A stretch of 15,468 nt of DNA from an uncultured Bdellovibrio sp. Lineage in GTDB: Bacteria; Bdellovibrionota; Bdellovibrionia; Bdellovibrionales; Bdellovibrionaceae. The notes below the pieces were generated by a model. It was given only the letters and a program-made list of their open reading frames with translations, ran no database searches and was not told where the DNA came from. Both the position numbers and the translations under genes were made by a program. This document shows, in pieces, positions 595 to 14,692 of the stretch. Position 1 is the first letter of the stretch; each line of letters opens with the position of its first letter. The stretch covers positions 1 to 15,468 of the forward strand of contig CAWVRN010000047.1 of the NCBI GenBank assembly GCA_963932905.1. Direction: 5' to 3'.

Positions 595-1942
595 ATTTTT
601 CTTTATTATTCTTTCGACACTTGTTTTTTCAGCCATCGGTATAAATTTGGTTCATGTAAAATTTTTCAAGAGTCAGCGATTGAAACTAATCGACAAGCAA
701 ATTATGGAAAGCTCGACGGCGTTATTGGAGTCGTCAGAATTCAAAAATTCAGTTAATAACGTCGATACCATTGAAGATACCATTTCCGCCGTATTAAAAG
801 GTGCACGAATCGGCAAAATTTTTGTTCTTAGAAATCCAAAAGCTGAGATCGTCTATCAAAGCTTTAATGTTGGATTGCTACAAACTGACATTCCAATTCA
901 AAATGAATGGGTCGCAGTCGAGACCGAAAATGAATACGTTCGGGTAAGAAATATAGCTTTATCCGATGCCTCTCCGTTCATTTTGCAAGTGGGCCTGGTA
1001 TTGGATAGAAATTTCCTAAATTGGGAAATTATTGATAGTCGAGTCATTGGATACGTTTCAGGAATCGTGGCTGTACTCTTTCTAGCATCTGTACTTCTAA
1101 CTTTAATTCTACTTTCTCCTCTAAGGTTACTAGTAACACATTTGCAAGAGTCCACGGCCCATTTGATTTATAGAAGAGATATTCATCAACTTCCCAATCG
1201 TCTACTCAAGTATACCGCCGGATTCTGGGCTAAGTCGGATGAATTTTCTGATCTCTTAAGCACAATTCGAAAACTAATTGATAGAATAAATCTAAATCAC
1301 AAAATGACAAAATCGTGGACACTTCAGATGGCTCATGAATTAAAAACTCCTCTTGCCCTAATGAAAGTAGACACGGAGACAAAGAAAAAAGAAAATTTAC
1401 TGCCCACTCAATACGCGAACGACGCAATTGAGGAAATTGGCAAAGTTTCAGAAATCATCACTCAATTTTTAGATTGGGCCGAAGTGGAAAACTCTCCGCT
1501 TCAAAATGATATTCATGCTCTTAGGCTGAATTTAGTAATTAAGGAGATAGCTACCCGATTGGATAAAATTGGACATGGCAGAATTCAACTTGATCTCAAC
1601 TCCGATCTTACTGTATTCGCAAATCCAACCCATCTAGATCAATTAATATCAAACCTTGTAACTAATGCCTTGAAGTTTTCTTCCGAAGATAAAAAAATAA
1701 TTCTAATATTGGGAAATGACTATCTTATCGTAAAAGATTTCGGCACCGGAATTCCAAAAGAAGTTAGAGACCGGCTAGGTGAGCCCTTCAATGTCGGTTC
1801 AAGTAAAAACAAAAAAGGCAACGGCCTTGGACTTGCTTGGGTGGTCACGATTTCAAAACTCTACGAATGGAACCTTGCAATTAGAACCGACACTGAAGGA
1901 ACAGAAATAGAGATCCGCTTCCCAAAGGAAGAAATTAGCTAA
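584..1942 (+). CDS. Membrane sensor histidine kinase
   Basis: Two TM segments flanking a periplasmic region; H-box MAHELKTPL, N-box NLVTNALKF, G1 DFGTGI, G2 GNGLGL. The TTG start overlaps the response regulator end by 11 nt. Confidence 0.93.
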   Translation: MRNRFFFIILSTLVFSAIGINLVHVKFFKSQRLKLIDKQIMESSTALLESSEFKNSVNNVDTIEDTISAVLKGARIGKIFVLRNPKAEIVYQSFNVGLLQTDIPIQNEWVAVETENEYVRVRNIALSDASPFILQVGLVLDRNFLNWEIIDSRVIGYVSGIVAVLFLASVLLTLILLSPLRLLVTHLQESTAHLIYRRDIHQLPNRLLKYTAGFWAKSDEFSDLLSTIRKLIDRINLNHKMTKSWTLQMAHELKTPLALMKVDTETKKKENLLPTQYANDAIEEIGKVSEIITQFLDWAEVENSPLQNDIHALRLNLVIKEIATRLDKIGHGRIQLDLNSDLTVFANPTHLDQLISNLVTNALKFSSEDKKIILILGNDYLIVKDFGTGIPKEVRDRLGEPFNVGSSKNKKGNGLGLAWVVTISKLYEWNLAIRTDTEGTEIEIRFPKEEIS

Positions 1943-1953
1943 ATAGCCCACAA

Positions 1954-3090
1954 TTAAATGTTAGTCCACTCGGGAGTATCCGTTAAGTTCTCCCTCACCA
2001 AATGCCGAATGATATTTTCAAAATCATTATTAAAATGATCTCTTTGTCTTTTGTAGCTCGGGCCATTTTTAATAACGATATCCAGATAACTAAAAAACTT
2101 ATTATAATCAAACTCATCTGCGATGTGCTCTAAGGACCTAACCAAATCTGCCCAAATTTGATTAAAAGGAAATGAGTTTCCGTTGAGATCGTTAATCAAA
2201 TCACATTGAACCCCGTGACGAGACGCTCGCCATTTGTTTTCGCGTAAAATCCATTCGGGAGGGGGTGAAAACTTTCTACCAAGACTAAGCTCTCTATCAA
2301 TAAAAACAGCCAAAGAATGAATGAGGGCTACCAATGCTTCTACTTCCTTCATCGTGGGAGGACAATCTGCAATTCTAACTTCGATAGTTCCATACTCTAA
2401 GTTAGGCCGAATGTCCCACCACAAATCCTTAATTGACTGAATCGATTTAGAGTAGATCAACTTTTCCACTAGAACTTCAAACTCGCTCCAACTATTTACT
2501 AGGCACGGATGGCCACCGGTTGGAATCGCTTCGAAAAAGGTAATCCTACTAGATGCTAACCCTGTATCCTGCCGATGCCAAAATGGCGAACTGGCCGATA
2601 TAGCCAGCAGAATGGGTAAATAATGGCAGAGGGCATTGTTCATCAAAATGGCGTGCTCTCCATTTTTCATCCCCAAATGCACATGGAGTCCAAAAATTTG
2701 TAGTCTGCGCGTGATCCACTTATTTCTATCAACAAGCGAAAAATACCGACTACTGGGGGTCAGGAGGCGTTCTGTATAATGAGCAAACGGGTGAGTTCCC
2801 GCCATCATAACTTCGGCATCATGTAGTGTTGCCGACGATCTTACTTTATCGAGTGAAGCTCGAAGTGAAGCTCCGACTTGACTTGCATTATCGCAAATTG
2901 GGGTATCGATTTCTAACATACTTTGAAAAATTTCTGACTTTATATGAACAGCATCTTTGTCATTTTTTAGAGCCTCTAAAATGACCGGACCTACCGGCTT
3001 AAGATCTCCTGATGTTGGATCTATTAATTGTATTTCGACCTCGACACCGAGACGAATTGATTTATTTTCATTAAAAATTAGTTCTGCCAT
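1954..3090 (-). CDS. ybdK: YbdK-family carboxylate-amine ligase (glutamate--cysteine ligase 2, GCS2)
   Basis: Family motifs LGVEVEIQL, AGTHPF, GLHVHLG, SASSPFW, TGLASSR, WWDIRP, GTIEVRIAD, ENKWRASRHG; 378 aa. Confidence 0.9.
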   Translation of the reverse strand: MAELIFNENKSIRLGVEVEIQLIDPTSGDLKPVGPVILEALKNDKDAVHIKSEIFQSMLEIDTPICDNASQVGASLRASLDKVRSSATLHDAEVMMAGTHPFAHYTERLLTPSSRYFSLVDRNKWITRRLQIFGLHVHLGMKNGEHAILMNNALCHYLPILLAISASSPFWHRQDTGLASSRITFFEAIPTGGHPCLVNSWSEFEVLVEKLIYSKSIQSIKDLWWDIRPNLEYGTIEVRIADCPPTMKEVEALVALIHSLAVFIDRELSLGRKFSPPPEWILRENKWRASRHGVQCDLINDLNGNSFPFNQIWADLVRSLEHIADEFDYNKFFSYLDIVIKNGPSYKRQRDHFNNDFENIIRHLVRENLTDTPEWTNI

Positions 3091-3103
3091 AGGTCAACCT
3101 TAC

Positions 3104-3157
3104 TAGTGGCGACCCTACCAACTAAATACTTTTGAGATCAAATTATCTCAAAACCCA
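3104..3157 (-). ncRNA. Riboswitch-like cis-regulatory RNA, copy 1 (ybdK leader), nhaA-I-like
   Basis: - strand: TGGG-TTTTGAGAT/AATTTG/ATCTCAAAA-GT-ATT-TAG(T)T-GGTAGGGTCGCC-ACTA. Core 12-mer at 3108-3119, 17 nt before the ybdK ATG. Confidence 0.72.
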
Positions 3158-3408
3158 AATGATAACATTAAAATGTTGATAATACTGAAAAACAGTCACT
3201 AAAATAGTTCATTTCTGAAATTTGATAAAGTCTTGTTTTCTAAAGAACTATAGCTATAAGTCTTTCACACTTTACTTTGAGTACAAATGAAAATATGCTA
3301 AATCTATGTATGTATCTGAATTTTCTCCATCATTCCGATCAAAAATGATACATTCTAACGCATTTAAAGCACTTCAAGTTCCAATAAACTATAGCCGGCA
3401 GCGTAGTC

Positions 3409-3819
3409 GTGGATGATTCAAAGATTCCAGAACAAGTTAGGCATTTTATTTATAAGTACATTGATTCAGTTGAGATTCTAGAAATTTTGCTATTTCTACG
3501 TTCGCATCCGGAAGAATGGAATTCAGCAGAACAAATTAATGCCGAATTAAAGACTCAAGCCTCTTCAATTGCCAAGAAATTAATAATTTTAAAATCATTC
3601 GGCTTTCTAGAAGAAGACCCTGCAACCGTAGGTAAATATAAATTTGCGCCAACAACAGGAGAAATTGAGATAAGTATTGGTCTCCTGGCAGAGGAATATA
3701 AAATAAGACGTTACCGAGTTTATGAATTAATTTTTTCTCAGAAAAATCATATTAAAAATTTCGCTGACGCTTTTATAATAGTGAACAACAAAAACAAAAA
3801 GGATGATGAAAGTGGCTGA
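3409..3819 (+). CDS. Hypothetical protein, winged-helix-like, of the type usually found upstream of DUF5985 gene pairs
   Basis: 136 aa ORF with GTG start. The pattern IPEQVRHFI..IDSVEILEILLFL and the C-terminal IKNFADAF resemble this family as I recall it. Overlaps the next gene. Confidence 0.7.
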   Translation: MDDSKIPEQVRHFIYKYIDSVEILEILLFLRSHPEEWNSAEQINAELKTQASSIAKKLIILKSFGFLEEDPATVGKYKFAPTTGEIEISIGLLAEEYKIRRYRVYELIFSQKNHIKNFADAFIIVNNKNKKDDESG

Positions 3820-4075
3820 GATAGTATATGCATTATGTTTTTTCTTAAGCGTTTTATGTGCATTTTTATTATTCCGCAAATATCTCAATTCCAAATTAAG
3901 CTTATTGTTATGGACAGGACTTTCTTTTTTCTTTATCGCTATCAATAATCTTATTCTATTTGTTGATCTGGTAATTTATCCCGAATTAGATTTTAGCGGC
4001 GGGCTATTAAGAGTCCTTAGCGGCGCAATAGGTGGATGCATTCTTTTATTCGGCCTAATATGGGAGGCAAAATGA
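3812..4075 (+). CDS. DUF5985-like small membrane protein (about 3 TM)
   Basis: MAEIVYALC...LLLWTGLSF...INNLILFVDLVIYP...LLFGLIWE fits the DUF5985 pattern. GTG3812 is preferred over ATG3803 because AGGA lies 8 nt upstream. Confidence 0.75.
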   Translation: MAEIVYALCFFLSVLCAFLLFRKYLNSKLSLLLWTGLSFFFIAINNLILFVDLVIYPELDFSGGLLRVLSGAIGGCILLFGLIWEAK

Positions 4076-4362
4076 ACTTCATAGGCTTCCTTTCTGGTAT
4101 TTATATGATATCTTTTGCCGCTTCCGGCCTCATTTTCCTTAACTTTTTCAAATCCACCGGTGATCGATTTTTTAAGTATTTTTGCTATGCCTGCTGGATG
4201 CTATCAATTGAGCGATTCGCTTTATTTTTAATTGCAAATCCACTACCTGCGCAGCCAAATGTCGTTTCGGAAACGGAAACTTGGGTTTATTTGTTCCGCC
4301 TATTTGCATTTTTGATAATTCTCTACGCGATTGTCGACAAAAATAGAAAGTCAAAATCGTAA
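4072..4362 (+). CDS. DUF5985-like small membrane protein, second member of the pair
   Basis: FFKSTGDRFF...VYLFRLFAFLIILYAIVDKNR pattern. ATG4072 overlaps the upstream TGA (ATGA), with SD GGAGG at 4063-4067. Confidence 0.75.
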   Translation: MNFIGFLSGIYMISFAASGLIFLNFFKSTGDRFFKYFCYACWMLSIERFALFLIANPLPAQPNVVSETETWVYLFRLFAFLIILYAIVDKNRKSKS

Positions 4363-4439: not shown

Positions 4440-4541
4440 TTATTTTCGACGTCTCTCTAAATAAAACAGTCCTACTAAAACCACGACAGGAACAAGAACA
4501 AAAGTAAGGTCGACTAACTTGTTAGCGACGTCATCAGACAT
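4440..4541 (-). CDS. Small single-TM membrane protein, 33 aa (MSDDVANKLVDLTFVLVPVVVLVGLFYLERRRK), not in the ORF track
   Basis: Translated by hand. SD GGAG 5 nt before the ATG; hydrophobic stretch followed by a basic tail; downstream of motif copy 2; paralogous to 4681-4806. Confidence 0.72.
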   Translation of the reverse strand: MSDDVANKLVDLTFVLVPVVVLVGLFYLERRRK

Positions 4542-4555
4542 AAAAACTCCATTAA

Positions 4556-4582
4556 GTTAAATGGCGACCCTACCATTTGAAC
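4556..4582 (-). ncRNA. Riboswitch-like element, copy 2 (partial: second hairpin only)
   Basis: - strand GTT(C)AAAT-GGTAGGGTCGCC-ATTTAAC. Core at 4563-4574, 21 nt before ATG4541. No upstream TGGG-hairpin found. Confidence 0.55.
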
Positions 4583-4618
4583 AATAACTCTTTACTATAA
4601 CTTCTATTTTTTAACAAA

Positions 4619-4646
4619 ATTATATGTCATGTGATCATTTTAGCAA
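4619..4646 (-). promoter_or_regulatory. Putative sigma70 promoter for the 33-aa small ORF
   Basis: TTGCTA (4646-4641), 16-nt spacer, TATAAT (4624-4619) on the - strand. Confidence 0.45.
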
Positions 4647-4680
4647 CTCTTCACTGTCCGTTTTGCTTTACATCACAGTA

Positions 4681-4806
4681 TTAATCATCTTTCGTTTTCT
4701 TTTTTTTCTGTCTTTTTTCCCATATAACTATTCCAACAATGATGAAAGCTAACGGAATAATAAAGTAAGCAATTTCTGTAAATTTAGCGGCCCATGGTCC
4801 AGACAT
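4681..4806 (-). CDS. Small single-TM membrane protein, 41 aa (MSGPWAAKFTEIAYFIIPLAFIIVGIVIWEKRQKKKKTKDD), not in the ORF track
   Basis: Translated by hand. SD GGAG 4 nt before the ATG; TM segment followed by a polybasic tail; downstream of motif copy 3; paralogous to 4440-4541. Confidence 0.75.
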   Translation of the reverse strand: MSGPWAAKFTEIAYFIIPLAFIIVGIVIWEKRQKKKKTKDD

Positions 4807-4825
4807 AGTACTCCATTTTATTATT

Positions 4826-4879
4826 AAATGGCGACCCTACCATTTCAAAACTTTCACTCAATCTGCTAAGCGAAACCCA
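4826..4879 (-). ncRNA. Riboswitch-like cis-regulatory RNA, copy 3 (41-aa small ORF leader), nhaA-I-like
   Basis: - strand: TGGG-TTTCGCTTAG/CAGA/TTGAGTGAAA-GT-TTTG-AAAT-GGTAGGGTCGCC-ATTT. Core at 4830-4841, 23 nt before ATG4806. Confidence 0.72.
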
Positions 4880-4922
4880 TTCAATTTATTAATTCACTTT
4901 TATGTTTATACGTTTGATTATA

Positions 4923-6194: not shown

Positions 6195-6207
6195 AGGGTA
6201 CCCTCTG

Positions 6208-6264
6208 TTAACGGCGACCCTACCGTTTAAAACTCCTCAAGTAGGAAATCTACCTAAGGACCCA
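6208..6264 (-). ncRNA. Riboswitch-like cis-regulatory RNA, copy 4 (antiporter leader), nhaA-I-like
   Basis: - strand: TGGG-TCCTTAGGTAG/ATTTC/CTACTTGAGGA-GT-TTTA-AAC-GGTAGGGTCGCC-GTTAA. Core at 6213-6224, 18 nt before the antiporter ATG. Confidence 0.78.
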
Positions 6265-6360
6265 TCATAGAACAATCTCTTCGTTTACCTTACCTTCCAC
6301 ATTAAAGTCACTGCAAGTAGAAAAATTCGTTTCTGCTTTTTTTTAGCTTCAGCCTAAAAT

Positions 6361-8610: not shown

Positions 8611-10980
8611 CTACATAGAAATTATAGTGGGTACTAATTTGTTAACTGTTGATCGATCGCCAAGCTTGGAATCAGCGTTATCACCCCAACATTTGTATAT
8701 TCCAGATTTAGTTTGAGCGCACGTATAGCCGGCACCACTCACAACATCTAAATACGTTTCGGTCGGGTCAACATGGTATAGGGAATTGACCTCGTTATTA
8801 TTAGTACCATTCCCAATATTTCCCGCGTCGTTGTCGCCCCAACAATAAAGATGATCAGACTCTGAAATCGCGCAAGCGTGAGTCACTGAAACAGAAACGT
8901 GTTTGAACTTTGTGCCGGGTTTAACCAGCTCGGGCACCTGAGCCGGACTTGAAGATCTATTATTAATATAACTTCGTCCCCAACATTTTAAATCGGCATC
9001 AGTTGTAATAGCACAACCGAATCCCCCCAAGGAAACAGACTTGTATTTAATTCCGACATCAATTTGTTTGGGTGTCGGAATATTACTTAGTGTACCATCT
9101 CCCAGTTGGTAGTCATCGTTGCGTCCCCAACATTTTAAATCTCCGCTAACTGTGATACCGCAATTAGAATCGTCGGCAGACACGACACTCGCATACAATT
9201 CACTGGAATCGATGCTTACGGGCGAAAATGATTCATCCGTTTCCCCATTGCCAAGATTATAATCGTTATTTTTCCCCCAACATTTCAATAAGCCCGAATC
9301 AGTTATCGCGCAGGCATGATTATTTCCTGCCGATAGATCTTTAAATTCTAAACCCACTTCGACTTGACTTGGATAATTTAGCTGATCTGAATGCCCCAAG
9401 CCCAACTCTCCATTAGAGTTACCACCCCAGCAATAAATTTTACTTTCCTTTGTAAGACCACATTGGAAAAAAGTTCCGTAAGAAAACTTAACAAAGTTCC
9501 ATGGATTCGAAATTTCAAATGGAGTGTTGTAATAATCAACAAGCCCTAAACCGCGAGAGAAAAGACTTCCGTTCCAGCATTTTAAACTGCCCGTAGTAGT
9601 GATCCCGCAATATACGTGTCCTAAATTCACCGATTGATAACTTGCCCCAGAATCGATAGTTACCGGGGTTGCTCGCGTGACCGTTGTACCGTCACCTACT
9701 GAACCACCATAGTTGTGTCCCCAACACTTTAAAACACCTGTCGTTGTAACACCACAGCTGTTATATTCTGATTGATGGATGGATTGGTATTGTACTCCAG
9801 AATCAATTATTGCCGGGGAAGTCGTGTTTGTCAGAGATGCATTTCCCACCAAACTCCAAAGCGGTCCACCCCAACATTTTAGGATACTGTTCGTCGTTAT
9901 TCCGCAAGTTGCCGTGCTAGATTTTACTACTCGAATATAGCTCACTGCCGAATCTACTACGACGGGCGATAACCTTACCGTTGTCGTCCCATCACCCAAT
10001 TGTCCATACTGATTTTGGCCCCAGCATTTAAGCATACCTGTTGTGGTAATGGCGCAAGCAGAATTAGTGGACAAACTCACAGTTGAATAAGTTGTACCTG
10101 AGTCAACAACGACAGGAGATGATCTATCCGTAGTACTACCGTCCCCCACAATCCCGTTATAATTGACACCCCAACATTTTAATATTCCCGTCGAAGTAAT
10201 ACCGCACGCAGAAGCTCCTCCAAGTGCTATTTTTTGATAATTTGCCCCGGCATCAATAATGGTCGGGCTCACTTTATCTAGTGAGGTTCCATCTCCAACA
10301 AGCCCATTATTATTTTCTCCCCAGCATTTTAGTTTCGCCGAAGTAGTAATACCACAAACCGTGTATCCAGAAATTTTAAGCTCGGAATACGTTTCGGACG
10401 TATCAATCGCAGTCGGTGTAGAACGTAACGTTGTAGAGCCATCACCAATCTGCCCACTTCCGTTGTAACCCCAACATTTTATTTTTCCTGATGTGGTTAT
10501 TCCGCAGGTAAAATAGTGCGAGGCCTCGATTTTTGAGTAACTTTCATTACTATCCACGGCCACTGGACCGTTTTGAGCCGTACTATTTGAAAAACCCAAT
10601 TGCCCATATTGATTACTTCCCCAACAATATAATCGATTTAAATTGGAAATAGCACACGTATGATTTAGCCCCGAGGAAACAGATAGGAACGTGGTTCCTT
10701 CAGAAACGACACGAGGTATTTCTTGGACTGAGGCATCTAAAAAATTATTGAAATCGATTGATCGCGGCCCCCAACACTTCATACGTCCATTTGTCAAATA
10801 AGCACATGTCGACGAATCGCCCTCAAATGGATTTGCAAACAAACGAGCTCTTTCAGTCGCTAGGTCTTGTTGAGGCCCAACTACTTCAGGACTTTTATTA
10901 TCTTCCGTAGAAAAACTTGAAGAACACGATACAAGAATAAAGTAGCCAAAAAATAACAGGAAAATACTGACTAGTTTCAT
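8611..10980 (-). CDS. RCC1/BLIP-II-repeat beta-propeller lipoprotein (about 789 aa)
   Basis: About 15 repeats of roughly 50 aa (C-[GA]-I-T..G.LKCWG.N..G.[LV]G.G). ATG10980 gives a lipoprotein signal MKLVSIFLLFFGYFILVS-C, so it is preferred over TTG11007. Confidence 0.9.
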   Translation of the reverse strand: MKLVSIFLLFFGYFILVSCSSSFSTEDNKSPEVVGPQQDLATERARLFANPFEGDSSTCAYLTNGRMKCWGPRSIDFNNFLDASVQEIPRVVSEGTTFLSVSSGLNHTCAISNLNRLYCWGSNQYGQLGFSNSTAQNGPVAVDSNESYSKIEASHYFTCGITTSGKIKCWGYNGSGQIGDGSTTLRSTPTAIDTSETYSELKISGYTVCGITTSAKLKCWGENNNGLVGDGTSLDKVSPTIIDAGANYQKIALGGASACGITSTGILKCWGVNYNGIVGDGSTTDRSSPVVVDSGTTYSTVSLSTNSACAITTTGMLKCWGQNQYGQLGDGTTTVRLSPVVVDSAVSYIRVVKSSTATCGITTNSILKCWGGPLWSLVGNASLTNTTSPAIIDSGVQYQSIHQSEYNSCGVTTTGVLKCWGHNYGGSVGDGTTVTRATPVTIDSGASYQSVNLGHVYCGITTTGSLKCWNGSLFSRGLGLVDYYNTPFEISNPWNFVKFSYGTFFQCGLTKESKIYCWGGNSNGELGLGHSDQLNYPSQVEVGLEFKDLSAGNNHACAITDSGLLKCWGKNNDYNLGNGETDESFSPVSIDSSELYASVVSADDSNCGITVSGDLKCWGRNDDYQLGDGTLSNIPTPKQIDVGIKYKSVSLGGFGCAITTDADLKCWGRSYINNRSSSPAQVPELVKPGTKFKHVSVSVTHACAISESDHLYCWGDNDAGNIGNGTNNNEVNSLYHVDPTETYLDVVSGAGYTCAQTKSGIYKCWGDNADSKLGDRSTVNKLVPTIISM

Positions 10981-10987
10981 AGTCAAA

Positions 10988-11014
10988 CTATCGACATTTG
11001 AGGGCAAATCTTTA
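10988..11014 (-). promoter_or_regulatory. Putative sigma28 (FliA) promoter of the RCC1 lipoprotein gene
   Basis: TAAA (11014-11011), 15-nt spacer, GTCGATAG (10995-10988), versus consensus TAAA-N15-GCCGATAA. Confidence 0.55.
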
Positions 11015-11253: not shown

Positions 11254-13203
11254 ATGCAAAGACGAATGATACTAGATAAGTCTTTGCTTATCGTCGTTAG
11301 CATTTTTTGCATCATTTTATTTCAAAACTGCGGGCAAAATTTCAAAATCCTCGAAGACGGACAGGCCGGTTTGAGTTCTAGTCAGCCAGAATCAGATATC
11401 TTATTCGCTGAAAAAAATATTTACGCCAATAAATGTGCAACTTGCCACGGCTCATTCGCAATATCGAATTTAAAAAATCGTATCATCACGAAAGAAAAAA
11501 TAACGAATGCAACTAATTCTATTACGGCTATGCGATTTTTAAAAGGAGCTCTTTCCGAAGATCAGCTGGCCGCGATAGAACGCCTCTTTGCTCAACCGCC
11601 TACGTCGTCTCCGTTGATTTCATCTTTTGAATGCACTTCGCCGGAAGAAGAAAAAAATAGCTCCATTGATTTAATTAGATTATCTGGAAAAGAATTAATT
11701 AATACCTATAAAACCCTTATTCCTTCCACTATTTGGAGCAACCTAAGCCCGTATACCTATCTGCTACCCACCGACAGCTTTAGTAACAAAATCTCAACGG
11801 CACTGTCTTCCTACAGTCAGTCACAAATCACAAGGGTTTCTGAATTTAATGACAAGCTCTCCAGCGAAATCACCTCAACCACTAGTAAAATCGCTGCTTT
11901 TTTCGGTTCGTGCGCCTCCACGACAAGTTTCACAAAATCCTGCTTCGATAGTTTCATGAATGCAAAGGCAAGTCGCATCTACCGATCGGCGCTTGCAACC
12001 GATGAGCTTTCTACCACGTGGGATGCGATATCTACGTTATCACCCGTCAACGATCAATTAAAAACATTAATACAAATTCTATTTAATGATCCTCGCTTCC
12101 TATATCATCTGGAAATCGGTGACGGTTCACCGACTACAAACGGTCTTTACCCGCTTTCCTCATACGAAATTGCCAATCGAATTTCATACGGAATGCTTGA
12201 GTCCCCACCCGATGATGCTCTCTGGAATGATGCCGTTGCCGGTCGCCTTAAATCGTTGCCAACCATTTCCGCACATGTGGATAGAATGGCCAATTCACAA
12301 TCGTTCCAAGCACGTATCATACAATTTATGAAATTTTATATTGGAAAATCACCCACTAATCCTCCAGCTAGTGCTGAATTTTTAAATGGCTTGAACACCA
12401 GTACTCTAGGCGCTGATCTTGAAACCGAGTTTGAAGACTTTATTAGGTACATCGTTTTTACGAAAAAAGGAAATTTATCTGAACTATTTACCTCGCCGGC
12501 AGCTTTTCCCAAAACGTCGGCCGTCGCATCTATATTTGGCACCTCGACTACATCTTCAAGCACACCGGTAGAAGCGCCCAACCATTCTGGAATTATAACT
12601 CGTCCATTCTTTGTGCTGGCAACGTCACCCAACGTAAAATCCGTTCAGCGTGGACGAGCTATCCGCATGAATATGCTGTGCACGGATATCCCTCAACCAT
12701 CCGCAGAAGACTTAGCGGCACGCCCTACGTTGACTGAAAGTGACCTACTGTCCTTAAGCAGTCGTCATTATATCGACAAGGCTACATTGGCAGCTCCTAG
12801 CTGTATCGTATGTCATTCCAAAATGAATCAGCTGGGATTCACCTTGGGTCACTATGATTCCGTAGGTCGCTTCATGACAGTCGAAGGTATCTACAATTCC
12901 AGCGGTACCAAGGTCGCTAACCACGTAATTGATTCTACGACCAAGCCGATGATCACCGAAATCGACAATAGTCAATTTGCGGGGGCTATGGATTTTCAAA
13001 ATTCCCTCTACCGTTCTGATGTCCTTCAACAATGTATGACAACAAAAGCATTTGAGTTCTTTTCTCGCCAAGTCGCGAACGTAAGCATGGATTCGTGTCG
13101 TTTAAATAAAATGGACAATGCCATTAAAAGCGGAAAATCACTTTTTGATTTCTTTAATGAAAACTTTAAGCAGCCAAGTATTCTCTACCGAAGGGGTAAC
13201 TAG
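11254..13203 (+). CDS. DUF1595/DUF1592/DUF1588/DUF1585-type lipoprotein with c-type heme motifs
   Basis: Lipoprotein signal ending LFQNC; CxxCH motifs CATCH (11434-11448) and CIVCH (12802-12816); family motifs PRFLYHLE, LSSYEIANRISY..ESPPDDAL, VQRG..IR..MLC, LGFTLGHYDSVGRF. Confidence 0.85.
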   Translation: MQRRMILDKSLLIVVSIFCIILFQNCGQNFKILEDGQAGLSSSQPESDILFAEKNIYANKCATCHGSFAISNLKNRIITKEKITNATNSITAMRFLKGALSEDQLAAIERLFAQPPTSSPLISSFECTSPEEEKNSSIDLIRLSGKELINTYKTLIPSTIWSNLSPYTYLLPTDSFSNKISTALSSYSQSQITRVSEFNDKLSSEITSTTSKIAAFFGSCASTTSFTKSCFDSFMNAKASRIYRSALATDELSTTWDAISTLSPVNDQLKTLIQILFNDPRFLYHLEIGDGSPTTNGLYPLSSYEIANRISYGMLESPPDDALWNDAVAGRLKSLPTISAHVDRMANSQSFQARIIQFMKFYIGKSPTNPPASAEFLNGLNTSTLGADLETEFEDFIRYIVFTKKGNLSELFTSPAAFPKTSAVASIFGTSTTSSSTPVEAPNHSGIITRPFFVLATSPNVKSVQRGRAIRMNMLCTDIPQPSAEDLAARPTLTESDLLSLSSRHYIDKATLAAPSCIVCHSKMNQLGFTLGHYDSVGRFMTVEGIYNSSGTKVANHVIDSTTKPMITEIDNSQFAGAMDFQNSLYRSDVLQQCMTTKAFEFFSRQVANVSMDSCRLNKMDNAIKSGKSLFDFFNENFKQPSILYRRGN

Positions 13204-13204
13204 T

Positions 13205-14692
13205 ATGAATCAAAACAGAAGAAATTTTATCAAATCGGGTTCATTACTGTTTACGATTCCGTTTGTTGAAGCCCTGCCGAGTCTAGGCTTTGCCGCCAGT
13301 GCCAGTGGATCTCTAAAACGAGTTCTATTTTTTAACTTGAGCCAGTCCTGGGCACAAGATCAGATTTTCCCTACAGCTACTAACTATTCCGTAGGTCCCG
13401 AAGGAGTCCGCTACATTCCGTTAAACTCGTTTAGCGGCGACATATCAAAACTTTTTACCGCCTCTAAGTACGCTGGCATTAAAAGCAAAATGAATATTAT
13501 GAGAGGCTTCGACTGCGTAAAAACAGACATTCTAGGTGGCGGTGGACACAACAAAGGCCTGGCTATGAGCGCGTGTTTTGAAAATGCGTCGAATATGCAG
13601 TTGAAAACAATTGATCACGTTATTGCCGAATCGCCAGGGTTTTACCCAACAACTCCCCATCGAAAAGTATTTAGCGCCATCGCTGCGAAAGGGAATTTTT
13701 CCTGGAGGTACAGTAATTCATTTAACCTCACCAAGCCTATCGCTGATTTGATCGGCGCCGGTGCGTGCTACACCAATGCAGAAGGAACGAAGGAAATATT
13801 TTCAGATCTTTTTTCAACCCCGCTACCTAGCGGTAGCACCGCCCCGGTCGATTCCAATCTATCGCGACGTATAGCCTTGAACAATGCGCTTAGCAAATTA
13901 AACCTTTTATCAAAAAATACAAAAATTTCAAAACATGGACAGCAGACATTCACTCAACACGCTGATTTTATCAATCAAATTTTACCCTCGATTGCGCCCC
14001 CATCTGGCTCGTCGTCAGGACTTTCAGGCACCTGCTTAAAACCCACACTAGACACAGCTATCAACGATTCCGAACTATCGACATCCAACAATGGCAAACG
14101 CTTGCGGGCATGTTTAGACATGATTTACATGGCTTTTAATTGTCAGCTGACGAATGTCGTTTCCTTTTTTCCAATGATCGCAGCCGACAACGAAAATGCA
14201 GCGATGGGAGACGACGTCGGCATCTATCACGAAAATGTCGGGCATAAATATAATCCGGAATATTACCTCGCCCATAAAGGATTTTTATTTGATAACTTGA
14301 TGTACTTAGTGAACTTGATGGACTCCACAAAAGAGAGCAACGGTTTATCCATGTTAGATAATAGTTTAATTGTCGTAGTTTCCGATGATGGCTGTGCCAC
14401 TCATAGCTATCGTGATCTTGGCGCCATTACATTTGGTTCTTTAGGCGGTACGATCAAAACGGGAAATTTTATTAACTTTCAGCGAACCGATGCTCCGCTT
14501 ATTGATGGTGGGTCTGATAACGGCCGCTATTTTTATAATTTAGGCCGTCCTTATAATTCTCTGTTCACTACTATCCTGAATGCTTTGAAAATTTCAAATT
14601 CAGGTTTCGGTATATACCCCACATCATCGACTAATTATGCGCCTTTCATAACGGCCTCCGCGAAGGCAGCGAGTCTACCGATTTTGAGTTAG
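13205..14692 (+). CDS. DUF1552-family protein with Tat signal (about 495 aa)
   Basis: ATG13205, 1 nt after the upstream stop, gives MNQNRRNFIK (twin-arginine) plus IPFVEAL. Motifs TIDHVIA, AFNCQLTNV, E.NG.SMLDNSLI, HS, FGSLGG.IKTG. Usual partner of DUF1592 genes. Confidence 0.85.
   Translation: MNQNRRNFIKSGSLLFTIPFVEALPSLGFAASASGSLKRVLFFNLSQSWAQDQIFPTATNYSVGPEGVRYIPLNSFSGDISKLFTASKYAGIKSKMNIMRGFDCVKTDILGGGGHNKGLAMSACFENASNMQLKTIDHVIAESPGFYPTTPHRKVFSAIAAKGNFSWRYSNSFNLTKPIADLIGAGACYTNAEGTKEIFSDLFSTPLPSGSTAPVDSNLSRRIALNNALSKLNLLSKNTKISKHGQQTFTQHADFINQILPSIAPPSGSSSGLSGTCLKPTLDTAINDSELSTSNNGKRLRACLDMIYMAFNCQLTNVVSFFPMIAADNENAAMGDDVGIYHENVGHKYNPEYYLAHKGFLFDNLMYLVNLMDSTKESNGLSMLDNSLIVVVSDDGCATHSYRDLGAITFGSLGGTIKTGNFINFQRTDAPLIDGGSDNGRYFYNLGRPYNSLFTTILNALKISNSGFGIYPTSSTNYAPFITASAKAASLPILS

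Follow-up and report, generated by a model that had tools for sequence, protein, structure and literature searches.

Predicted membrane micropeptides behind a leader RNA resembling alkali-ion riboswitches in the Bdellovibrionaceae

Several small membrane proteins of fewer than 50 amino acids with a single membrane pass, including KdpF, AcrZ, MgtS and MntS, are associated with transporters. Proteins of this kind are induced by the very stress that the transporter answers, and one of their genes, kdpF, is encoded directly before the transporter gene kdpA.

Among the leader RNAs that sense alkali ions, the closest described counterparts of the element considered here are those of the nhaA-I type, the Li+-I and Na+-II riboswitches (RF03057). 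According to the consulted portions of White et al. 2022 (PMC9646797), 356 of 944 nhaA-I RNAs precede nhaA and others precede further antiporter genes or otsA, 171 of the 944 precede genes labelled “hypothetical”, and control of the ribosome-binding site is proposed for most members. The Na+-II variants are given there as confined to the Deltaproteobacteria, ahead of genes of unknown function. The word “Bdellovibrio” is absent from the text and two supplement files of that report, though the published alignment may still include Bdellovibrio members. A second class, Na+-I (the DUF1646 motif, RF03071), has an overall model that the consulted part of PMC9337991 calls similar to nhaA-I.

Transporter-tuning small membrane proteins and ion-sensing riboswitches are both known, and a full-text literature search found no report joining the two. 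The same search returned nothing on the RNA or the peptides described below in Bdellovibrio, and no riboswitch-like leader in print that has a micropeptide as its commonest output.

The locus and its micropeptide family

The window is the whole stretch of DNA analysed here, 15,468 nucleotides from an uncultured Bdellovibrio sp. (contig CAWVRN010000047.1). A sequence-only reading of it had claimed two small ORFs, each with a GGAG Shine-Dalgarno sequence, directly downstream of an antiporter gene, and both the ORFs and their position stand. The ORFs lie on the minus strand at 4806-4681 and 4541-4440 (stop codons included) and encode peptides of 41 and 33 residues, with GGAG placed 4 nt and 5 nt, respectively, ahead of the ATG; they are preceded by a gene at 6194-4923 (minus strand) coding for a 423-aa putative Na+/H+ antiporter of the PF07399 (Na_H_antiport_3) family (Pfam, E 1.2e-176). 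The minus strand also carries, at 1954-3090, the gene for a GCS2-family (PF04107) carboxylate-amine ligase (Pfam, E 2.4e-49), which belongs to the same leader-RNA regulon and has the leader motif 13 nt 5' of its ATG. Both micropeptide ORFs are the last genes ahead of convergent genes. Convergent with the 33-aa gene are two overlapping tandem DUF5985 (PF19447) genes on the plus strand (3803-4075 and 4036-4362), and ahead of this pair lies a 136-aa ORF without a Pfam match (3409-3819). Elsewhere in the window, and unrelated to the micropeptides, are a gene for a 798-aa RCC1-repeat protein (8611-11007, minus strand) and, beside it, a gene pair with DUF1592/DUF1588/DUF1585 domains and a DUF1552 domain (11254-14692, plus strand).

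The two ORFs had further been read as paralogous single-pass membrane micropeptides, a reading borne out by matches to a family profile, invariant K and P residues, hydropathy and a basic C-side. The 41-aa peptide scores 54.3 bits (E 7.3e-14 per genome) and falls in an “IFWE”-type subgroup, and the 33-aa peptide scores 48.6 bits (E 4.5e-12 per genome) and falls in a short “LE-basic” subgroup. In the family alignment the former keeps K8, P18 and E30; the two peptides are 24% identical, with the family's K, P and post-helix acidic residue kept in both. In each, a 19-residue window reaches a Kyte-Doolittle hydropathy of about 2.4, and the net charge on the C-side is +3 or +4.

Across 35 aligned sequences K-x9-P is invariant and the tail is basic, and in all 21 rows of one alignment, read by eye, an acidic residue follows the P by 11-12 positions, giving a family signature of K-x9-P-x11/12-[E/D] to which both window peptides conform. 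All 35 peptides have a 19-residue hydropathy window of at least 2.17, and their median net charge is 0 on the N-side and +4 on the C-side. Seven database representatives carry, by eye, an apparent N-terminal signal peptide ahead of the K...P...E module. This distribution of charge, together with the apparent signal peptides, predicts an N-out, C-in topology with the basic tail inside. The signal-peptide-like subgroup, as judged by eye, comprises P0019, P0026, P0027, P0029, P0030, P0034, P0049 and the copy at L025:1421-1600 (genome G087), which meets a stop after 36 aa and looks truncated.

Codon-level conservation, which the sequence-only reading had named as a check on the two genes, is found in the family: the reading frames are conserved, and dN/dS is 0.26, 0.16 and 0.17 in the three least saturated orthologue pairs, all from genus g9 and not from the window's own genus. 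An exhaustive profile search of 1.84 billion representative proteins recovered 42 clusters at E<=1e-3, all of 32-97 aa. A word-indexed search returned 19 relatives of 33-76 aa, including Bdt_0704, and the HD100 protein CAE78695.1 is a relative too; none has a Pfam domain, and the sole name they bear is “hypothetical protein” of Bdellovibrio. A public collection of predicted proteins already contains both window peptides, of 41 and 33 residues, with identical sequences. Nothing relevant was matched by three of the peptides in Pfam at E<=10, NCBIfam gave no match above its cut-off (weak compositional ones only), and the best scores of the 41-aa peptide in the ESM Atlas, 0.77-0.78, fell on unnamed clusters that offer no lead.

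A six-frame profile search of 151 genomes of the family Bdellovibrionaceae gave 22 matches in 20 genomes, spread over 8 of 41 genera, and a phylum-wide search of 301 genomes gave peptide matches of at least 48 bits in the Bdellovibrionaceae alone. Partial matches of 21-25 bits outside the family were rejected as chance transmembrane likeness, most of them lying inside long open frames. By profile, alignment and hydropathy, this is a conserved and previously uncharacterised family of predicted single-pass membrane peptides of 29-56 aa, and there is little reason to doubt that both window ORFs would be expressed genes belonging to it.

A two-hairpin leader RNA resembling the nhaA-I plan

A block of 22 nt had been reported as common to the leaders of both ORFs. 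The window holds exactly two copies of it, at 4557-4578 and 4824-4845 (minus strand); shuffling 200 times yielded no match with three or fewer mismatches, and a third copy, 80% identical, stands at 6207-6231, 5' of the antiporter gene. As a regulatory element of the leaders, the block forms a hairpin, P2, with the stem AARYGG/CCRYUU and the loop UAGGGUCG, which recurs in nearly all copies with few single-base variants. The full leader consists, in order, of an invariant GGGU, a variable hairpin P1, AGU(U), a linker and P2. A core regular expression finds seven sites in the genome, six of which are in sense orientation at most about 25 nt 5' of a start codon; these six precede the PF07399 antiporter gene, the 41-aa ORF, the 33-aa ORF, the GCS2 ligase gene and, on contig C22, an NhaA-type antiporter gene and a 49-aa paralogue of the micropeptides. 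The seventh, on contig C8, is without a nearby start codon.

Twenty-one copies drawn from several genera were aligned, and from this alignment and its RNAalifold consensus, in which 7 of the 11 pairs are changed on both sides, we built a covariance model, R1. In the 46 R1 matches (44 distinct rows), aligned by fitting to the model, 98.1% of cells are paired, as against 84.1% after shuffling, and compensatory changes occur in 9 of the 11 pairs of that same fitted alignment. None of 500 shuffles reaches any of five measures, and controls in which the partner was slid pair in 36-67%. P1 differs among copies in both sequence and length with its pairing kept, and every copy read has the sense orientation and places the 3' arm of P2 no more than about 30 nt 5' of the start codon. 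We consider it highly probable that the leader acts in cis as a structured regulatory RNA.

R1 detects five complete copies in the window's genome, ahead of the genes for the PF07399 antiporter, NhaA, the GCS2 ligase and two micropeptides. Those in the window lie on the minus strand at 6206-6265 (antiporter, 46.5 bits), 4823-4880 (41-aa gene, 63.4 bits, model positions 1-58) and 3101-3158 (ligase, 56.7 bits). The genome also has a half match ahead of the 33-aa gene and two further weak matches (E 0.04 and 0.19). The earlier claim that each micropeptide stands behind its own copy of the motif is therefore right for the 41-aa ORF, which has the full motif, but only half right for the 33-aa ORF, whose leader at 4560-4581 (minus strand, 27.6 bits) consists of the P2 hairpin alone, positions 33-54 of the 58 in the model, with P1 and GGGU absent.

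The element is not recognised by existing models. At E<=1 no family of Rfam 15 matches any leader copy in the whole window, and two leaders searched singly at E<=10 likewise gave no match. RF03057 (nhaA-I), searched across the genome at E<=10, missed all copies, nothing reaching its gathering threshold of 37 bits; at E<=0.01 it matched none of 151 genomes of the phylum, and it gave 0 matches in five other genomes reached through loci with the P2-core pattern. RF03071 (Sodium) at E<=10 matched no leader copy; its six matches in the genome are all weak (E 1.5-7) and lie at other sites. This RNA variant is missing from Rfam.

The likeness to Li+-I/Na+-II (RF03057) is one of layout, and was judged by eye against the constructs printed in the consulted portions of PMC9646797. 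By eye, both appear to have two hairpins, GGGU 5' of P1 and A-G(G)-U-U 3' of it, and a P2 closed by GG/CC with an 8-nt loop N-N-GGG-N-CG. The loop reads GG-UAGGGUCG-CC here, as against UCGGGCCG in Li+-I and CCGGGCCG in Na+-II of D. propionicus as printed there. By the same comparison two loop positions are changed here, with 10 of 12 core positions the same as in the printed constructs, and AGU(U) after P1 has one G fewer than the published AGGUU; a further difference is that no terminator follows the leader here. Na+-I (RF03071) is alike in being an alkali-ion sensing leader before Na+-related genes, but the P2 region of its construct, as printed in the consulted part of PMC9337991, is by eye unlike P2 here. 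Because the construct plan is shared (GGGU, P1, linker and GG/CC-closed P2), and despite the lack of an Rfam match, we read the leader as a putative diverged variant of the nhaA-I-type alkali-ion riboswitch, a likeness judged by eye, and the balance leans towards its sensing an alkali cation.

To examine the expression platform we computed minimum-energy folds of six leaders, namely those of the PF07399 antiporter, the GCS2 ligase, the 41-aa and 33-aa copies, and loci L069 and L056. In five of the six P1 forms, and P2 is replaced by a helix of its loop and 3' arm with the Shine-Dalgarno and AUG region; the z-scores of these five are -2.7, -2.5, -1.4, -1.6 and -3.5. The antiporter leader (z-score -2.7) sequesters the Shine-Dalgarno sequence and the A of the AUG. 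For the 41-aa gene the platform is the GGAG spacer at 4807-4822 (minus strand), which in the minimum-energy fold is able to pair with the 3' arm of P2: CCAUUU pairs with AAAUGG, and AUGGUA with UACUAU at the start codon. The start codon lies within CCUAUG in 25 of 41 copies, and CCUA can pair with UAGG of the loop; the window's two peptide copies have ACUAUG and UUUAUG instead. Such folds would suit a switch that turns translation ON when P2 is stabilised and the ribosome site thereby freed, the direction of switching being our interpretation of the models. As the fold of the 33-aa leader retains P2 and has no unusual stability (z-score -0.6), this copy, with its P1 half lost, may escape ligand control and be constitutive. 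A scan for promoters and terminators gave counts equal to shuffle expectation, and a TTGCTA-16-TATAAT site 5' of the 33-aa leader is for this reason a hint at most.

The resemblance of the two leaders had suggested a tandem duplication of leader plus ORF, which the comparison does not uphold: the units hardly align outside a 25-nt P2 block, and the peptides belong to different subgroups. The nhaA-operon peptide of L069, from another genus, shares 53% identity with the 33-aa peptide and 21% with the 41-aa peptide; the 41-aa peptide is instead 34-49% identical to the “IFWE” subgroup, which includes the 49-aa paralogue. With the 24% identity of the peptides, the alignment limited to the P2 block and the separate subgroups, we reject a recent duplication; as judged from these alignments the window peptides are old paralogues of two subgroups, and the identical P2 block may result from constraint or gene conversion.

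The P2 hairpin has also left its mark on annotation. The sequence ATGGTAGGGTCGCCATTT translates as MVGSPF, and the public gene calls of P0016, P0022, P0026 and P0034 start with MVGSPF or MVGSPS; gene callers thus appear to have started inside the leader RNA, and these starts are probably wrong.

Linkage of leader, peptide and antiporter across genomes

We searched the 151 family genomes with R1 at E<=0.001 under strict filters, which left 36 candidates scored per genome. The matches fall in 30 of the 151 genomes and 11 of the 41 genera. Of these 36 matches, 23 precede a micropeptide, 21 of them intact and 2 truncated by eye (L060, 20 aa, and L025, a shortened form bearing an apparent signal peptide); PF07399 antiporter genes follow in 5 cases, GCS2 ligase genes in 3, NhaA genes in 2 and other genes in 3. 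Conversely, judged by coordinates, all 22 peptide matches in the 151 genomes stand directly downstream of an R1 match, the window's 33-aa copy being behind its half motif. The link of homologues to the RNA motif, on which the sequence-only reading had made its proposal depend, is thus present for all 22 peptide genes. Most genomes of genus g9 have the peptide gene alone under R1 control and no antiporter gene close to it. A weak second R1 match (26 bits) was seen at L055:2122-2173 (G050), between a 173-aa gene with a strong leader and a DapB-like gene.

In location too the leader is like Li+-I: it precedes genes for NhaA (2) and PF07399 antiporters (5 in the family and 2 more in the phylum), and an ORF neighbouring an Mrp-type gene. 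The last case is an in-family locus (L073:1501-3062, G043) in which a leader with the loop variant CAGGGGCG is followed by an 84-aa ORF and then by the gene for a Proton_antipo_M (Mrp/Nuo-type) subunit; the Mrp-type antiporter is another antiporter type in the regulon. In the phylum, R1 matches 11 of 151 genomes, five of them outside the family, ahead of PF07399 genes (L077 and L078) and of other or unclear genes (L079, L080 and L081). A scan of genome contigs with an unspecific pattern, the P2 core plus ACT, gave a sole convincing R1 match among the 80 matches listed, L142:694-751 from an Opitutia MAG outside the phylum (40.1 bits); two more among those listed are borderline (18-19 bits).

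We then compared the surroundings of 23 peptide loci over 1.5 kb on each side, scanning the longest non-overlapping ORFs and dropping shorter overlapping ones. Eleven of the 23 adjoin an antiporter gene, 7 of them nhaA and 4 PF07399. Going by the first in-frame start, the peptide ORF lies directly upstream of nhaA at L068, L069 and L070 (3-6 nt) and at L074 (50 nt); at L060 the peptide is downstream of nhaA, and in G000 (contig C22) and G033 peptide and nhaA are convergent, with a leader for each gene. The PF07399-adjoining loci are the window's two, L044 (peptide after PF07399) and L065 (peptide before it). At the remaining 12 loci the flanking 1.5 kb contain no antiporter gene, and nine of these loci belong to genus g9; 7 of the 8 peptide-bearing genera have at least one antiporter-adjacent copy. 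A search of metagenome contigs with a narrower alignment found one locus, L224, which repeats the arrangement of a convergent NhaA (recognised by likeness) and 49-aa peptide, with two R1 matches. The association with antiporters proposed from the window therefore holds in the form of a shared leader RNA and of synteny in 11 of the 23 loci, but does not extend to the 12 loci without an antiporter within 1.5 kb. The antiporters next to the peptide genes come from two families without relation to each other (NhaA and PF07399), a pattern more in keeping with co-regulation than with a single dedicated subunit.

Other neighbours were noted. At L057, L058 and L059 (genus g9) leader and peptide follow, on the same strand, the gene for a HAMP-HisKA-HATPase sensor kinase. 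Immediately upstream of the leader, peptide and PF07399 gene of L065 (G143) stands, at 1663-3066, a GCS2 ligase that is joined to a Peptidase_C26 (gamma-glutamyl hydrolase-like) piece, and at L044 a trehalose-phosphatase gene is beside the peptide; these two loci hint at osmolyte genes near the regulon.

Possible roles and relation to known systems

Since the same leader stands ahead of the genes for NhaA, the PF07399 antiporter and the GCS2 ligase, we regard the peptides as outputs of a cation- or salt-stress regulon, and they probably belong to the salt-stress response. In the mechanism that we favour, a two-hairpin leader RNA, built like Li+-I/Na+-II (nhaA-I type), would control translation of the peptide. 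With the presumed ligand, an alkali cation, present, P2 would form and the ribosome site would be freed; with the ligand absent, the region of the Shine-Dalgarno sequence and the start codon would be taken up in pairing with the P2 loop and 3' arm. The peptides would then be regulon outputs, and in most relatives the sole output found, and they would most likely influence Na+/H+ antiport from within the membrane, binding or tuning NhaA, the PF07399 transporter or both. To this reading as a whole (a real family, riboswitch-like control, a place in the regulon and action on antiport) we assign a probability of roughly 60%. A direct action of the peptide on NhaA, on the PF07399 transporter or on both, as opposed to some other membrane target, is a more tentative proposition, which we place somewhat below even odds. 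A stronger version is doubtful: the micropeptide would be the principal effector of an unrecognised variant class of alkali-ion riboswitch, such that a rise in Na+ or Li+ yields a peptide of 30-50 aa that binds NhaA or the PF07399 protein directly and tunes antiport, or itself forms a cation-conducting oligomer. A complex prediction for the NhaA and operon peptide of L069 returned a score of 0.00, “no answer”, and speaks neither way.

The alternative that survives best, though we think it unlikely, accepts the peptides and their leader RNA as real but gives them a target other than an antiporter, such as a block on Na+ entry, the tuning of a sensor kinase or a pore, the adjacency to antiporters reflecting a shared regulon. 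MgrB tunes a sensor kinase in this manner, and the three g9 loci in which the peptide follows a histidine-kinase gene would suit such a role, as would the g9 genomes with the peptide as sole R1-controlled gene and the split of the neighbouring antiporters between two unrelated families. Against it, the three peptide ORFs that end 3-6 nt before nhaA have a spacing typical of co-made partners, and an antiporter-adjacent copy occurs in nearly all of the peptide-bearing genera.

The same tight spacing at three loci, and the very short length of the ORFs, could also indicate that they serve mainly as translated leaders, linking the RNA switch to the genes that follow, and that the peptide product is itself functionless. 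This is very improbable: more than half of the loci have no antiporter within 1.5 kb, the window ORFs are the last before convergent genes, K, P and the acidic residue are conserved across genera with dN/dS well below one, and forms with an apparent signal peptide occur. About as improbable is a role of the element as a DNA operator bound by a dimeric transcription factor, or as the site of an RNA-binding protein, in place of a ligand-sensing RNA. P2 is indeed an inverted repeat and the Rfam riboswitch models do not match; however, P1 varies in sequence and length and still pairs, all copies read share the sense orientation and have the P2 3' arm close to the start codon, the element is complementary to the Shine-Dalgarno and AUG region, and its layout matches, by eye, the validated Li+/Na+ aptamers in the consulted portions of PMC9646797. 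A protein partner on the RNA may exist all the same. That the ORFs are chance open frames in an AT-rich spacer, where short ORFs are common, is already contradicted by their conservation (profile matches of 48-54 bits per genome, homologues in 8 of 41 genera and 42 clusters, and purifying selection in the family) and can practically be set aside.

The gene most often seen behind this ion-riboswitch-like leader in the family codes for a micropeptide and not for a transporter, and in the model predator genus the micropeptide is the only gene found behind the leader. The system offers a handle on the function of the “hypothetical” genes behind Li+/Na+ riboswitches and on the modulation of NhaA-type antiport, and it adds an RNA variant uncaptured by Rfam and a gene family that annotation pipelines give wrong starts.

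Like KdpF, AcrZ and MgtS, the window peptides are shorter than about 50 aa and have, by hydropathy and alignment, a single predicted transmembrane helix, and some peptides of the family are encoded directly before a transporter gene. They differ from KdpF, AcrZ, MgtS and MntS in showing no sequence relation to them (three peptides against Pfam at E<=10, and NCBIfam), in their riboswitch-like RNA control and in standing alone at half of their loci. If the peptide is indeed the effector, this would be the first riboswitch with a regulatory membrane micropeptide as its main output.
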